Positions 15,768-21,348 of a DNA stretch of 64,000 bases are shown piece after piece (position 1 is the stretch's first letter; every line of letters starts with the position of its first letter). The stretch is from Candidatus Nomurabacteria bacterium (GTDB lineage: Bacteria; Patescibacteriota; Minisyncoccia; Phycocordibacterales; UBA9973): positions 16,253-80,252 of the forward strand of contig JAHFNH010000001.1 of NCBI GenBank assembly GCA_023267435.1, written 5' to 3'. The notes beneath the pieces are model-generated. The model made no database searches and was not told where the DNA came from. It saw only the letters and a list, made by a program, of their open reading frames with translations. A program made the position numbers and the translations under genes.

Positions 15768-16382
15768 TTATTTTAACACACTATTTATAGCACTTTCTAA
15801 ATCTATAGGATTATCAATAATTAAAGCTGGATTGCCTTTTTCTAAAGTTTCTTTTTCGTGTAATCCCCAAGTTACAGCAATTGATTTTATTTTACATTCG
15901 TTCGCTTCTAATATATCACCTAAGGTATCTGTAATAAAAACACAATCATTCGAAGAAATAGAATGATCATTAAGTAGTTTATTTAATTTCACAACTTTAC
16001 TGACATGAAAATCAAAACCTAAAATTTCATCAAAGTATTTATCTATCCCTTCCCTTTTTAAATGATCAGTAATGGCTAAGGTGTATCCAGAGGTAACAAT
16101 AGATAGAGAATTATCTTTTGCTAATTTGATAACCAACTCTTTTAGAATCGGAGGTATATTTATATCGCATATTTTTTCGCCATAAAGAGTGTGGAAATCT
16201 GGATGAGGAGAAAATTTCTTATTTTTTATTCCAGAACGCAAAGCTGTATAAAAATTACCATGGGACATTTCTTTAAAATCCTGCCAGGAATGATCTGGAT
16301 TGTTTGCCTTGTTAAGTTCGTAACACATTAAAAGTGTATCAATTAATACCCCATCAAAATCAAAAATAACAAGTTTTTTCAT
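15768..16382 (-). CDS. HAD-superfamily hydrolase/phosphatase
   Basis: Motif I LVIFDFDGVLIDT. Confidence 0.75.
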   Translation of the reverse strand: MKKLVIFDFDGVLIDTLLMCYELNKANNPDHSWQDFKEMSHGNFYTALRSGIKNKKFSPHPDFHTLYGEKICDINIPPILKELVIKLAKDNSLSIVTSGYTLAITDHLKREGIDKYFDEILGFDFHVSKVVKLNKLLNDHSISSNDCVFITDTLGDILEANECKIKSIAVTWGLHEKETLEKGNPALIIDNPIDLESAINSVLK

Positions 16383-16383
16383 T

Positions 16384-19300
16384 TTATTTTTGAATCTTTA
16401 TCTTAAAGGCAAGTACGTCAACTTTTATTTCTTCGCCTTCATTAGTTACAAATTCTATTTTTGAAGCAAGGACTGTCTTTTTAAGATCAACTTCAAATTT
16501 TTCTATGAGTTTCTTTCCTTCTTCACTCGTTTCAATTGAAAGAGAAATCACATCCGATGGAGTAAGCCCAGACTTTTTGCGCATATCCTGCACACCACGT
16601 ACGAATTCACGATAATCCCCCTCTTCTTTTAATTCTGGAGTGATATTTATATCGAGAGATACTTCTGTTTCTAAACCACTATTCTCAACTATTTCTTTCA
16701 CATTCAATTCGTCTTTAATAACTTCAGAATATGGGGCACCGAGCTTATATTCTTTCACTTCAATTTTTGCCAACGGCTGACGCACTTTCATTCCTGCTTT
16801 CTGACGTGCTTCCAGTCCGAGTGAAACAACCTTTCGGATTTCCGCCATATTTGCAATAACATCGAAATTTATTTCATTCGCAACTGGCCAATGAGACAAA
16901 TGCACAGATTCTTCATCATGCTCATTTTTTAATTTCAACCAGATATCATCTGCTGAAAATGGTGCAAATGGCGCCATTAATTTCGCAATATTTTTTAATA
17001 CAAAATACAAAGTTTGTTTCGCATCGGCATCCCCTTCTTTTATTCTGTCTCTAGATCTTCGAACATACCAAGTCGAAAGGTCATCAATAAAATCTTTTAT
17101 TGCACGGACAGATTCTAGAAGTTTATAATTATCCATTTTTTCAGTCACAAGTGTAGTCAATTCATCCAAGCGTGCCAAAATCCATTGATCGAGAATATTG
17201 CCAGATTTTAAGTCTTTCACATCTTGTTCCAAATAAGTATCTCGGTAAAGCTCATAAAAAGCTAAAACATTATAAAGCAAACCAAAAACCTGACGATGAG
17301 TTTCATTCACAGTTCTTTCGTCAAAATTCTTTGATTCGCCTGGCTGATTTACTGAATACATCCAAAGACGCAAAGTATCCACGCCATATTTATCCATCGC
17401 AGTCCAAGGATCAACGACGTTACCGATAGACTTCGACATTTTTTTTCCTTCCTTATCTAAAATATGTCCTAGACAAATAACATTCTTGTAAGGTGTTCCT
17501 CTTCCCATAAGCACTCCCACTGCGAGCAAAGTATAAAACCATCCGCGAGTCTGGTCAATCGCTTCAGAAATAAAGTCCGCCGGATAACCTGCCCCTTCTA
17601 CCCATTCTTTATTTTCAAATGGATAATGGTCCTGAGCGAAAGGCATCGCACCAGAATCAAACCAAACATCCATCACTTCTTTTACTCTCTTCATTTCTCC
17701 TCCGCAAACTTGCCCCGCCTTGGCGTGGGTGCAAACAAGTTTTACATCATCAATAAATGGTCGGTGTAAATCAAGCTCGTAGTTTTCATTGTGTGGAAGC
17801 GGTACGAAACTAAGTTCCCGCACTTCAGCATTAGTAAAATGTTTAAAGCTTCCAAAAACTCCTTTTTCAATTTCTTCCGAATGACGGAAAGATCCACCGG
17901 TCATACTAATAGATTCATCTCCAGAATATCCACACGCTCCGGCAAAAAGCATCCATAATGGTGAGCCATGACTCAGTATTAAAATATTTTTATTTTTATA
18001 CTTTTCTTCGAGTTCATAAACAAAACTCATCATTCTATTTTTTACATCAAGCAATGATTCACCTTTATGTTTTGCAGAGAAAAATCTTTCATTAGCATCT
18101 TTAAATATATTTTTGTATTCATTCCAATTCTTTCCTTCAAAATCTCCTGCGTCTATTTCTGACAATCTTTTATCAAAAATTATTTGTTCATCTTTATAAC
18201 CCAATTTGTCTTTCAATATTTCTATAGTTTCGCGAGTACGCATGAAAGGTGAAACGAAAACTAAATCAATTTTTTCATCTTTCAATGATTCTACAGCTTG
18301 AAGTGCTTGCGCTTTACCTTGTTCCGTTAAATGATCTATATCTTCTACTCGTGAACAAACAACTCCGTGCAAATTATCTTTCACATTGCTCTCAGACTGT
18401 CCATGTCGCATGACAAAATATTTGTTACCAGATTTTATTACTTTTTGTTTTAAATCATCAATACTACCGACAATATGTCGATCGGTACATAAATCACACA
18501 CCCAAATAGGCAAAGGTGTTCCCCAGTATCGCTCGCGAGATATCGCCCAATCTTTCACCTCACGAAGCCATTCTCCGAATCTGCCTTCTCTGATATAAGC
18601 CGGTTCCCAATTTATTTTTTCATTCTCTTTCATTAAATCTTCTCGAAGAGAGGACATGTTGATATACCAAGAATCTCGTGCGAAATAAATCAATGGGGTT
18701 TGACAGCGCCAACAATGCGGATAATTGTGTTCGTATTTTTCTTTTTTCAAAAGCAGTCCACGGTGTGCCAAATCTTTGATTATTTCTACAGCTGTTTCTT
18801 CGTCTTTTACAAACTTACCTGCGAGAAAACCGGCAAATTTCAAAAAATTACCGTCTTCTCCGACCAGGTGGAATTTTGGCAAACCAATTTTGGTACCCAA
18901 TTCAAAATCATCTGCTCCATACATCACTGCTGTATGTACTACTCCTGTACCATCCACGGTCGTCACAAAATCGGCTGGATAAATTTTAAATGCATTACCC
19001 AACTTTTCTTTTTCCGCGCCAGAAATATTATCTTTCAAAAATGGATAAAGGGGTTCGTACTCCAAACCGAGTAAATCTTTGCCTTTCATTTTTGAAACTA
19101 TTTCATATTCCCCCACCAGCACATCTAAACGCGCTTCCGCTAAAATTAGAAATTCTTCTCCTTGCTTTACTTTCACGTAATTAATATCTTCCCCTACTGC
19201 TAAACCAACGTTACCCGGTAAAGTCCAAGGAGTTGTCGTCCAAGCTAAGACAAAAGTATTTTCTTCTCCGATTATTTTAAATTTCACAAAAACAGATAAT

Positions 19301-19914
19301 TCTTTTATATCTTTATAACCTTGCGCCAATTCATGCGAAGAAAGAGCTGTTCCGCAACGAGGACACCAAGGCAAAACTTTGTAATCCTTGTATAAAAGTT
19401 TTTTATCATCGACTGTTTTAACAACATTCCAAACTGACTCCATAAAATGTTTATCATAAGTAACATATGGATTCTCTTTATCGATCCAGTATCCTGTACG
19501 GTCAGTAAATTGTTCCCACACATCTATGTGCTTCCAAACACTTTCTTTACACTTCTTATTAAATGCTTCTATGCCGTAAACTTCAATTTCTTTTTTAGAT
19601 TTTAAGCCAAGTTCCTTTTCAACTTTTAACTCAACAGGCAAACCGTGAGTGTCCCATCCTCCTTTGCGTCGCACATGATAACCACGCATTGTTTTATATC
19701 GAGGCAAAGCATCTTTAAAACACCTTGGTTCAAGATGGTGAATACCGGGCATACCGTTCGCAGTTGGCGGGCCATCATAAAAAACGAACTCACCGCTCGG
19801 TGCTGGTTTTTTTAAAGATTTATTAAAAATATCTTTTTCTTTCCAAAATTCTAAAACTCGCTCTTCACGGAGCGCAGACTCACTTTTATTACTTATTTCT
19901 TTGTTTTCAGCCAT
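16384..19914 (-). CDS. ileS: isoleucyl-tRNA synthetase (type 2, Thermus/eukaryote-like) carrying an inserted histidine-phosphatase (PGAM-like) domain
   Basis: PPTANGMPGIHH (HIGH region, noncanonical), CP1 editing region, WAISRERYWGTPLPIW, KMSKSIGN. Between the two Cys pairs of the zinc knuckle (VCDLCTDRH ... ELDLHRPFIDDVKLVCTHAKAGQVCGG) lies an insertion of about 200 aa with RHGQSESN, SPFMRTRETIE and LILSHG motifs. Confidence 0.85.
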   Translation of the reverse strand: MAENKEISNKSESALREERVLEFWKEKDIFNKSLKKPAPSGEFVFYDGPPTANGMPGIHHLEPRCFKDALPRYKTMRGYHVRRKGGWDTHGLPVELKVEKELGLKSKKEIEVYGIEAFNKKCKESVWKHIDVWEQFTDRTGYWIDKENPYVTYDKHFMESVWNVVKTVDDKKLLYKDYKVLPWCPRCGTALSSHELAQGYKDIKELSVFVKFKIIGEENTFVLAWTTTPWTLPGNVGLAVGEDINYVKVKQGEEFLILAEARLDVLVGEYEIVSKMKGKDLLGLEYEPLYPFLKDNISGAEKEKLGNAFKIYPADFVTTVDGTGVVHTAVMYGADDFELGTKIGLPKFHLVGEDGNFLKFAGFLAGKFVKDEETAVEIIKDLAHRGLLLKKEKYEHNYPHCWRCQTPLIYFARDSWYINMSSLREDLMKENEKINWEPAYIREGRFGEWLREVKDWAISRERYWGTPLPIWVCDLCTDRHIVGSIDDLKQKVIKSGNKYFVMRHGQSESNVKDNLHGVVCSRVEDIDHLTEQGKAQALQAVESLKDEKIDLVFVSPFMRTRETIEILKDKLGYKDEQIIFDKRLSEIDAGDFEGKNWNEYKNIFKDANERFFSAKHKGESLLDVKNRMMSFVYELEEKYKNKNILILSHGSPLWMLFAGACGYSGDESISMTGGSFRHSEEIEKGVFGSFKHFTNAEVRELSFVPLPHNENYELDLHRPFIDDVKLVCTHAKAGQVCGGEMKRVKEVMDVWFDSGAMPFAQDHYPFENKEWVEGAGYPADFISEAIDQTRGWFYTLLAVGVLMGRGTPYKNVICLGHILDKEGKKMSKSIGNVVDPWTAMDKYGVDTLRLWMYSVNQPGESKNFDERTVNETHRQVFGLLYNVLAFYELYRDTYLEQDVKDLKSGNILDQWILARLDELTTLVTEKMDNYKLLESVRAIKDFIDDLSTWYVRRSRDRIKEGDADAKQTLYFVLKNIAKLMAPFAPFSADDIWLKLKNEHDEESVHLSHWPVANEINFDVIANMAEIRKVVSLGLEARQKAGMKVRQPLAKIEVKEYKLGAPYSEVIKDELNVKEIVENSGLETEVSLDINITPELKEEGDYREFVRGVQDMRKKSGLTPSDVISLSIETSEEGKKLIEKFEVDLKKTVLASKIEFVTNEGEEIKVDVLAFKIKIQK

Positions 19915-20029: not shown

Positions 20030-20704
20030 TTAAACATTTTGTTTCCATTTTTTACGCAAATCCCGTGCACGAACAGTGATGCCTTTTTTAGGACGTACTA
20101 CATTCTGATAATACTCTGTTCTGTTTTTAAGAGCATCGAAATGCTGCCTTAAACGGTCGGGAATTTTTCCCAAATAAAAAGGTATGGTGACTTTTTTATT
20201 TATCGGTGAAACCCAAACAGTTTCAACATCAGTTTGCTTAATGTTAAAAAGTAAATTGGTACCTTCAATAAATGGACGATCTTCCAACCTATTTATCAAA
20301 AAAGCAACTTCATTAACAATGTTTTTAATGAACGAATTCATATTTGTACGATAGAATTTTCGTATGTAAACTCTTTCAGTAATACCTTTGTTTATTACCA
20401 CCCAGCCACATCCACCGATTGAGGTGAAACCACCATTCAATCCTAAATTTGGATTGAATGAAGTATGCACTCTTATACAATAGTCTTGAAACCATTTTTG
20501 ATAGCTGAGCTGATCCTTTGTTTGTTTTATTCTTGCAACATCAGGCGGTTTACGATCAAACCTTTTAGCTTCTTTAGTTAAAATTTGTTCTGTTATTAAT
20601 TCAAGACCCAGTTTTAACAGATCCCGATTTAAAACAATAAATCTGCGATGATTCATTCCTTCCGGTTCCAGACATTGCTGGGATTTTAGTTTTCCTTTTT
20701 TCAT
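20030..20704 (-). CDS. hypothetical basic protein
   Basis: 224-aa ORF with K/R-rich termini. Confidence 0.5.
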   Translation of the reverse strand: MKKGKLKSQQCLEPEGMNHRRFIVLNRDLLKLGLELITEQILTKEAKRFDRKPPDVARIKQTKDQLSYQKWFQDYCIRVHTSFNPNLGLNGGFTSIGGCGWVVINKGITERVYIRKFYRTNMNSFIKNIVNEVAFLINRLEDRPFIEGTNLLFNIKQTDVETVWVSPINKKVTIPFYLGKIPDRLRQHFDALKNRTEYYQNVVRPKKGITVRARDLRKKWKQNV

Positions 20705-20824
20705 TTTCTATATTATTTTTTGAGGTTCATATCTTAAATCTTTATACCAAAAAACACTCTCTTTGTCAAAGGGTGTTTTTAAATAATATTTTTACTATTC
20801 GGAAAGACTTTTCTTGTAAAAAAG

Positions 20825-20850
20825 AAAGCCCTTCCAAAAGGAAGGGCTTT
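20825..20850 (-). terminator. rho-independent terminator
   Basis: GCCCTTCC-AAAA-GGAAGGGC perfect 8-bp stem with flanking T-run, downstream of the 20875..21348 gene. Confidence 0.65.
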
Positions 20851-20874
20851 TAATTTTAATTACAGTAAATTATT

Positions 20875-21348
20875 TTAATAATTACCGTCTCTGCAACTAC
20901 TCTCAGAAAGTTCAATACTTAGGAAATAACAAGTTAATTCGTTTCCTTTCTTGCGAATTGAATACGTAAGTTTCTTTTTTAACGTATTAATCGTTTCTTC
21001 TACATAGACTTTACAATGATGTGATTTTGACAACTGGGCAAGAAATTTATCAATAACTTCTCTATCTGTTTGTCCTACAAATGACTTTAATTTTCCATAC
21101 ATGTCATCTTTGTTTTCAAAGAACTTCAAATTACCAGAGTGTCGAGCATTCAACACATAACTTGTTTGATTTGTTGAAAGACAAAGAAAATTATAGTCAA
21201 ACACTTTTGTTTTCCAGCCATCACTAAATCCAGTGTCACCATTGTGTTTAAAAAGCCCTTGTATCCTCTGTAATGTTTTAAGAGGACTCAAATTGTCTGT
21301 CAGAGTTACTGACTCTGACTTTTTCGTTGATGAAAATGATACAGACAT
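20875..21348 (-). CDS. hypothetical protein
   Basis: 157-aa ORF with its own terminator. Confidence 0.5.
   Translation of the reverse strand: MSVSFSSTKKSESVTLTDNLSPLKTLQRIQGLFKHNGDTGFSDGWKTKVFDYNFLCLSTNQTSYVLNARHSGNLKFFENKDDMYGKLKSFVGQTDREVIDKFLAQLSKSHHCKVYVEETINTLKKKLTYSIRKKGNELTCYFLSIELSESSCRDGNY

Follow-up and report, generated by a model that had tools for sequence, protein, structure and literature searches.

A histidine phosphatase domain nested in the CP3 zinc knuckle of a type-2 isoleucyl-tRNA synthetase from Patescibacteria

Isoleucyl-, valyl- and leucyl-tRNA synthetases (IleRS, ValRS and LeuRS) carry a hydrolytic domain within their Rossmann fold, the CP1 editing domain, whose substrate is bound to the enzyme of which it is a part. 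Besides this editing domain, to our knowledge no further nested catalytic domain has been characterised in the Rossmann body of an aminoacyl-tRNA synthetase, and we know of no solved or described IleRS with a catalytic domain inside the CP3 subdomain. Here we describe an IleRS of this kind, which is encoded in a stretch of 64,000 nucleotides (the window) of contig JAHFNH010000001.1 (assembly GCA_023267435.1) from a Candidatus Nomurabacteria bacterium. The ileS gene of the window codes for a protein of 1176 amino acids (aa) in which a branch-1 histidine phosphatase domain (His_Phos_1, PF00300) lies in the tip of the CP3 zinc knuckle. Coordinates given below are positions in the window, and residue numbers refer to the 1176-aa protein.

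The host protein is similar to type-2 IleRSs. The best Foldseek matches for the full protein are IleRS2 from P. megaterium (8C8V, 34% identity) and the enzyme from Thermus thermophilus (1ILE, 36% identity, TMt 0.82), and the window protein shares with them the subtype, a CP3 knuckle with two Cys pairs, the DUF5915 domain and the GXHH signature. Unlike the Thermus enzyme, it has 219 residues in a place where Thermus has 5. The inserted domain is similar to PhoE (1EBB/1H2E), iPSP1 (4IJ5), GpgP Rv2419c (4PZ9) and CobC in its fold, in its catalytic residues, which are in register, and in its size, including a small helical cap. These relatives, however, are free-standing proteins of about 200 aa, whereas the domain from the window is nested in another enzyme and is 21-26% identical to them.

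A curated precedent for an IleRS with an extra enzyme domain is the family NF040702 ('isoleucine-tRNA ligase, N-acetyltransferase domain-containing', ileS_w_GNAT). The window protein differs from this family; it reaches 334 bits against a cut-off of 1999 and has no Pfam match to an acetyltransferase. The CP1 editing domain, a hydrolytic unit likewise embedded in the Rossmann fold, provides a conceptual precedent for a nested second active site. It differs from the phosphatase in being universal and ancient and in having an unrelated fold; the phosphatase, for its part, is lineage-specific and lies within CP3. A further precedent is the RNase H/acid phosphatase of the M. tuberculosis Rv2228c type (NF005567), in which a CobC-like domain is fused to an enzyme acting on nucleic acids. 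The match to this model is weak (71.9 bits, below the cut-off of 326), and Rv2228c is an end-to-end fusion with a different partner enzyme, whereas the domain described here is nested.

Neither the host, a type-2 IleRS, nor the insert, a His_Phos_1 domain, is out of the ordinary for its family; the unusual features are their combination and the nesting within CP3. The architecture has seemingly not been described. No report of a histidine phosphatase in an IleRS or ValRS turned up in a search of the full-text literature, the coverage of which leaves out most subscription journals, and a term search in recent papers on the evolution and structure of IleRS, among them a 2026 preprint on IleRS domain evolution and a 2023 paper on IleRS2, found no mention of it. 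This is consistent with a preliminary description of this DNA, which was made from the sequence alone and knew of no chimera between an aminoacyl-tRNA synthetase and a phosphatase.

The insert in the CP3 zinc knuckle

The open reading frame (ORF) of ileS is a single frame with no internal stop codon. A Pfam search with the 1176-aa protein found tRNA-synt_1 (PF00133) in two stretches with His_Phos_1 between them, followed by Anticodon_1 and DUF5915. The match to PF00300 extends over residues 500-666 with E=3.8e-35 and 121.8 bits, compared to a gathering score of 21.7. Together with the structure prediction and the fold comparison reported below, this result bears out the proposal of the preliminary description that a complete histidine phosphatase domain lies inside the IleRS. 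Because the flanks align to 1ile on both sides (local alignment; Table 1), residues 495-713 replace 5 residues of the Thermus enzyme. The limits proposed earlier for the insert, 17779-18441, agree with this alignment to within a few codons.

The alignment to 1ile and the Foldseek search identify the host as a Thermus-like type-2 IleRS and place the insert in its zinc knuckle, with one Cys pair on either side, where the preliminary description had located it. The pairs are 251 residues apart in the window protein (C476..C728) and about 37 in Thermus (C464..C502); the normal spacing of about 15 residues that had been assumed before is hence too short. The four cysteines are present in 99 of 107 aligned full-length homologues (alignment A1). 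The zinc motif has been assigned to the CP3 subdomain, which joins CP2 with the second Rossmann half, and the topology of CP3 varies between the IleRSs of Candida, Thermus and Staphylococcus (PMC7191050). CP3 is small and structurally plastic, and the phosphatase domain lies at the tip of its zinc knuckle.

Two further details of the knuckle were observed. The second Cys pair of the window protein (C-THAKAGQV-C) contains a loop of 7 residues beyond the C-x-C of Thermus. In about 8 of the 107 homologues all four CP3 cysteines are gone, and the phosphatase insert is still there.

A sequence search of the PDB with the insert detected PhoE (1ebb/1h2e) with E=1.6e-12 and the phosphoserine phosphatase iPSP1 from Hydrogenobacter (4ij5) with E=2e-12. 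The motifs VMRHGQSESN, SPFMRTRET, LSEIDAGDFEG and ILILSHG of the insert are in register with the catalytic positions of PhoE; the RHG, Arg and SHG elements, which had been read from the sequence before, are all present in the right order. A model of residues 480-725, computed with AlphaFold2 (AF2) from an alignment of 68 sequences, has a pLDDT of 93.7 and a pTM of 0.91, and the segment is predicted to fold as a PGAM-like alpha/beta domain. In the AF2 model of the full-length protein (mean pLDDT 83, pTM 0.75) pLDDT is highest in the insert, with values of 92-97. When the model of the insert was compared with the PDB by Foldseek, the matches included GpgP Rv2419c, iPSP1, PhoE, an HFP of the riboflavin pathway, CobC and TIGAR (E ~1e-12, TMt 0.64-0.78, rmsd 2.4-3.5 Å). 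True mutases rank below the small-molecule phosphatases in this comparison, and SixA, Sts and PGAM5 are not among the top 50 fold matches. SixA is also not among the NCBIfam matches listed, which are the best 25 of 33 families. The insert is a complete branch-1 histidine phosphatase domain.

Several more specific identities were considered for the insert and rejected. The three models for phosphoglycerate mutase of the dPGM type gave scores below their cut-offs (NF038349, 73.4 vs 225 bits; NF002339, 52 vs 316 bits; NF002901, 40 vs 261 bits). The same holds for CobC (TIGR03162, 78.3 bits vs a cut-off of 162.9) and for the phosphoserine phosphatase PspA (NF045917, 66.2 bits vs a cut-off of 350). 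The term 'PGAM-like' in the preliminary description is thus apt for the fold of the insert, while a mutase function is not suggested by the dPGM scores. The insert is acidic, with a pI of 5.6 and a net charge of -8. Judged from its motifs, it is probably an active phosphomonoesterase, which would use the standard mechanism of histidine phosphatases with a phospho-histidine.

The synthetase around the insert was said to be intact, and this is supported by several features. In spite of the interruption, the whole protein scores 889.6 bits with the NCBIfam equivalog model TIGR00392 for ileS (cut-off 621.4). It has retained the CP1 peptide WTTTPWTLP, the KMSKS motif and the anticodon-binding and C-terminal domains. 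The sequence KKMSK is invariant in all 107 aligned family members, and GIHH, the variant of the class I signature in the window protein, was found in 96 of them. Membership in type 2 is indicated by DUF5915 and by the closest structures, IleRS2 8c8v and Thermus 1ile. The window protein is the housekeeping type-2 IleRS of a Patescibacterium of the Paceibacteria/Nomurabacteria type. The intact motifs, the conserved synteny and the strong purifying selection suggest that it charges tRNA-Ile as usual. A GXHH variant of the HIGH signature has been described for IleRS2 and is documented as functional; GXHH mutants of the P. megaterium enzyme show hyper-resistance to mupirocin (PMC10485003). By analogy, such hyper-resistance may be intrinsic to the whole clade with GIHH.

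Next to the conservation of the synthetase we analyzed the conservation of the insert. In alignment A1 the residues R503, H504, N510, S555, R559, E619 and H649 are invariant, and G505, T560, T563, D581, R583, E586, G594, S620 and R627 are conserved to at least 90%. A second alignment (A2) of 68 sequences also includes fragments down to 33% identity. Here R503, H504, R559 and H649 are still invariant, and N510, R583 and E586 are conserved to at least 90%; the remaining core positions also stay within these two classes. With reference to the two closest orthologues the dN/dS ratio is 0.09-0.10 for the insert and 0.064-0.070 for the rest of the gene; these values are approximate, with a dS of about 1. 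Conservation within the insert is strongest at the catalytic residues, and the insert is under purifying selection that is nearly as strict as that on the essential synthetase.

The base composition and the borders of the insert were also inspected. G+C inside the insert (17900..18350) is 0.29-0.30, compared to 0.39-0.44 in the flanking sequence that codes for the synthetase. The 3' end of ileS is AT-rich like the insert, and the low G+C may reflect a weaker constraint on amino acids and not a foreign origin. A direct repeat of 17 nt (16/17 identical), which encodes IDDVK and IDDLK, flanks the insert at 17739..17755 and 18447..18463. It was considered as a target-site duplication; this was rejected, because the repeat is not kept even in orthologues that are 86-88% identical overall. 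Since it is absent from the closest orthologues, we consider the repeat a coincidence. A search for an intein or another mobile in-frame element found no Hint/intein or homing-endonuclease domain; His_Phos_1 is the sole Pfam match within the insert.

Table 1. Features of ileS and of its immediate surroundings in the window.
Feature	Position	Strand	Basis
ileS (type-2, Thermus/IleRS2-like IleRS; 1176 aa + stop; with nested phosphatase domain)	16384..19914	-	ORF, TIGR00392, Foldseek, AF2
IleRS residues 1-494: first Rossmann half, CP core, CP1 editing, CP2, start of CP3 to helix 'IGSIDDLKQKVIK'	18433..19914	-	Pfam tRNA-synt_1 at 20-497; residues 430-494 align to T. thermophilus 418-482
Non-canonical class I signature GIHH (residues 57-60) in place of HxGH	19735..19746	-	read from sequence
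First CP3 zinc-knuckle Cys pair C473, C476 (WVCDLC)	18487..18498	-	aligns to T. thermophilus WVCQAC
Inserted His_Phos_1 branch-1 domain with linkers, residues 495-713	17776..18432	-	1ile alignment, Pfam, AF2, Foldseek, dN/dS
Catalytic RHG (R503, nucleophile H504, G505)	18400..18408	-	aligns to RHG of PhoE 1ebb
R559, second Arg of the phosphate pocket (SPFMRTRET)	18238..18240	-	aligns to Arg of PhoE tsgRalET
E586, predicted general acid/base (LSEIDAGDFEG)	18157..18159	-	aligns to PhoE lrEihlGdwEG
H649, distal catalytic His (ILILSHG)	17968..17970	-	aligns to PhoE THG
Second CP3 zinc-knuckle Cys pair C728...C737, with 7-residue extra loop THAKAGQV	17704..17733	-	aligns to T. thermophilus ACACGG with a 7-residue gap
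IleRS residues 714-1176: end of CP3, second Rossmann half (DVWFDSG, KMSKS), anticodon-binding and type-2 C-terminal domains	16387..17775	-	Anticodon_1 at 909-1049; DUF5915 at 1083-1176; residues 714-784 align to T. thermophilus 488-550
KMSKS, residues 825-829	17428..17442	-	
HAD-family phosphatase gene	15768..16382	-	HAD_2, E=4e-15
Two ORFs (224 and 157 aa) between argS and ileS	20030..21348	-	

Distribution of the insert and related proteins

Homologues of the protein were sampled as the 120 best full-length matches (61-88% identity, 1138-1341 aa) from NCBI, JGI, ENA and Logan. In addition we scanned GTDB with one genome per species (395 relatives), from which 80 loci were retained. The window protein itself is on record, on a contig of 242 kb. 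PF00133 and PF00300 are both present in all 120 homologues. All of the 80 GTDB loci, which are 45-84% identical to the window protein, fully cover the insert and both of its flanks, and all are from Patescibacteria (Nomurabacteria, Paceibacterota/Paceibacteria, Taylorbacteria, Parcubacteria and Minisyncoccia). More divergent partial sequences carry the labels Nealson-, Vogel- and Colwellbacteria. Matches without the insert, in which only the flanks are covered, belong to other phyla; the segment is hence lineage-specific and not a routine part of type-2 IleRSs in many phyla, the two outcomes between which the preliminary description had proposed to decide by a search for orthologues. Some close relatives seemed to lack PF00300 (P0044, P0048 and others). 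They are fragments that start within the insert and not insert-free orthologues.

The gene order ArgRS-IleRS-RecO-DUF11 is held in 59-71 of the 80 loci. This conservation indicates that the genes are orthologues and that the insert was inherited vertically. The architecture is not unique to the window but lineage-wide in Paceibacteria, and the insertion is old. Members such as P0156 entered GenBank and UniRef with the GW2011 genomes of 2015, under no other name than 'isoleucine-tRNA ligase'.

An exhaustive HMMER search with the insert resulted in 9822 matches with E<=1e-3, 48 of them with E<=1e-30; the top 150 were inspected. They are mainly proteins of the size of IleRS and fragments. Genuine stand-alone genes of about 200 aa also exist, with 37-41% identity to the insert (P0290, P0297 and P0303, all on short contigs). 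Among the IleRSs some carry additional or differently placed domains. In some eukaryote-like IleRSs (such as P0371 and P0336) CP3 is normal, with 56 residues, and His_Phos_1 is located elsewhere, once between DCWFESG and DQTRGWF and a second time after KMSKS. At least 3 inserts are present in another IleRS (P0328). In addition to the phosphatase in CP3, P0364 has an AAA_18 P-loop kinase-like domain and P0300 a GNAT domain, and P0197 has an extra HD domain at its C-terminus. The protein with the GNAT domain also has a match to an IS200-like Y1 transposase within CP1 (residues 340-461).

The search also detected a ValRS with four His_Phos_1 domains (P0276). His_Phos_1 is present in 1-3 copies in 70 of the 119 best relatives of this protein, and these 70 are ValRSs of 1030-1626 aa; several of the ValRSs with the domain (among P0384-P0501) are labelled Gracilibacteria or Peregrinibacteria. 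Most of the domain instances in ValRS (72/83) lie between WxISRQ and DxWFxS, the site that is equivalent to CP3, and RH[GAST] is kept in 81 of the 83 copies. Sibling ValRSs of 880-980 aa, one of them from Nomurabacteria, are devoid of His_Phos_1. Taken over the IleRS and ValRS relatives, the domain was found before WxISRQ (in ValRS), in CP3, between DxWFxSG and DQxRGWF, and after KMSKS. There are 1-4 copies per protein, and copies in one protein are merely 33-36% identical to each other.

The identity between inserts is 33% within ValRS and 42% within IleRSs of the window type, and 26% between ValRS and IleRS. The lower identity across the two hosts suggests that each synthetase acquired the domain on its own. 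In a pairwise comparison of about 140-160 domains the groups are 26-42% identical, and ValRS and IleRS inserts alone form separate groups; the stand-alone set in this comparison is biased and may include fragments. Taken together, a phosphatase sits in CP3 of the sole visible IleRS of a bacterium with a minimal genome and is kept in at least 80 species, and an equivalent solution, with up to four copies, seems to have arisen separately in ValRS. CP3 would be a natural and validated site for engineered domain insertions in class Ia synthetases.

Possible roles of the inserted phosphatase

We favour, albeit tentatively, the explanation that the insert is an autonomous, tethered phosphomonoesterase for a small substrate resembling a nucleotide or sugar phosphate, and that it works outside the chemistry of aminoacylation. 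The window IleRS would then be bifunctional. In the phosphatase H504 would attack the phosphate to form a phospho-histidine, with the phosphate held by R503, R559, H649 and N510; E586 would protonate the leaving group and then activate water. The synthetase part, with its zinc ligands, GIHH, KMSKS and the editing and anticodon domains retained, would charge tRNA-Ile. By being tethered to an essential and abundant protein the phosphatase could gain co-expression and stability in a minimal genome, and CP3 may have been chosen as the surface loop of IleRS and ValRS that best tolerates insertions.

A small-molecule substrate is suggested by the nearest characterised relatives of the insert, which are enzymes of this kind, and by the acidic nature of the domain. 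That the module is autonomous is suggested by the several attachment sites, by the divergent multiple copies and by the stand-alone genes. The explanation is also favoured by the variable, surface-exposed nature of the CP3 subdomain (PMC7191050). If the insert is a metabolic enzyme 'parked' in this way, ultra-small genomes would be reusing essential proteins as scaffolds.

Some of the data weigh against this explanation. All specific NCBIfam models for phosphatases and mutases score below their cut-offs with the insert; because of this and of the low identity to known enzymes (21-26%) no substrate can be transferred to it. His_Phos_1 is overwhelmingly dominant at CP3, where a permissive site should host many domain families. 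This dominance and the separate acquisition by IleRS and ValRS argue for a functional connection specific to class Ia synthetases, for which the favoured explanation does not account. Furthermore, all sites of His_Phos_1 surround the catalytic body, which binds the acceptor arm; none of them is in the anticodon or C-terminal domains.

A link of this kind would be provided if the phosphatase heals tRNA ends. The domain would strip a blocking 3'-phosphate or 3'-pyrophosphate, or a 2' or 3' phosphate left by a nuclease, from the CCA end before charging, and in this way protect the cell against tRNA-targeting toxins such as toxSAS. We regard this as unlikely, but several observations are in line with it. 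The association of His_Phos_1 with class Ia synthetases is recurrent, host-specific and independently acquired in IleRS and ValRS, and every insertion site is in or beside the body that binds the acceptor arm. The co-inserted AAA_18 P-loop kinase-like, HD and GNAT domains are of kinds known from RNA-end repair and tRNA chemistry. A 3'-phosphate is a phosphomonoester and falls within the chemistry of this family. ToxSAS pyrophosphokinases target the CCA end of tRNA and stop aminoacylation by pyrophosphorylating it (10.1101/2021.04.30.441581; PMC11559606). On the other hand, the nearest characterised branch-1 neighbours of the insert are all small-molecule enzymes, none of which acts on RNA ends, and the insert is acidic. 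The several divergent copies at variable sites are also unlike a precisely placed repair site, and no toxin or repair genes were seen beside ileS in the neighbourhoods inspected. The broader proposal, that His_Phos_1 was repeatedly recruited into class Ia synthetases of Patescibacteria (IleRS in Paceibacteria, ValRS in Gracilibacteria/Peregrinibacteria) as a built-in step of tRNA 3'-end dephosphorylation before charging, is more doubtful still. If the healing of tRNA were true, it would represent a previously unknown third catalytic activity of aminoacyl-tRNA synthetases and a new resistance to toxins that target tRNA.

The insert could also be a protein phosphatase that acts in cis by dephosphorylating the synthetase or a partner, either to regulate charging or to confer immunity to Hip-like kinase toxins. 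The histidine phosphatases include protein phosphatases such as SixA, Sts-1 and PGAM5, and the kinases HipA and HipT inactivate GluRS and TrpRS. An intramolecular reaction would be well served by attachment at different points around the catalytic core, and multiple copies are compatible with this role. However, the cap helices and the structural neighbours of the insert are of the small-molecule type, with no protein phosphatase in the top 50 fold matches, and no kinase was seen in the neighbourhood of ileS. Furthermore, we know of no kinase toxin that targets IleRS or ValRS. Together, these points make a protein phosphatase improbable. A module that acts on tRNA ends or on the synthetase would in either case reveal a new level of quality control in translation or of resistance to toxins.

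A functionless passenger is even harder to reconcile with the data. On this reading a tolerant loop would have taken up a selfish or neutral sequence in frame, or the insert would be a purely structural expansion, and its phosphatase activity would be irrelevant or lost. CP3 is structurally plastic among IleRSs (PMC7191050), the site bears other cargo in relatives, and the insert is lower in G+C than its flanks. But the catalytic residues are invariant or nearly so in more than 100 orthologues, divergent ones included, and RH[GAST] is maintained in nearly all ValRS copies. The insert has a dN/dS of about 0.09 and holds no intein or homing-endonuclease domain, and the flanking repeat is a lineage-specific coincidence. 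It is the data on selection that lead us to disfavour a passenger.

That the architecture is an artefact, namely a frameshift, a chimeric contig or a phosphatase gene wrongly merged into ileS, is hardly credible and has nothing in its favour but the prior that metagenome assemblies can be chimeric; the preliminary description had likewise held it to be a domain insertion. The frame is continuous, both junctions are shared by at least 80 independently assembled species genomes and by 120 protein clusters, the two parts of the CP3 knuckle stand on either side of the insert exactly as in 1ile, and AF2 folds the whole protein coherently.

Genes next to ileS

A gene for a HAD-family phosphatase begins 1 nt past the stop codon of ileS and is in the same apparent operon. 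It was considered as a conserved partner of the synthetase and rejected, because it is at this position in just 11 of the 80 orthologous loci.

On the other side of ileS, the two ORFs that separate it from argS gave no match to Pfam or PHROG. The ORF of 224 aa alone has relatives among the 80 loci, and these are in the two closest genomes. The segment with the two ORFs looks like a small variable island within an otherwise syntenic region.

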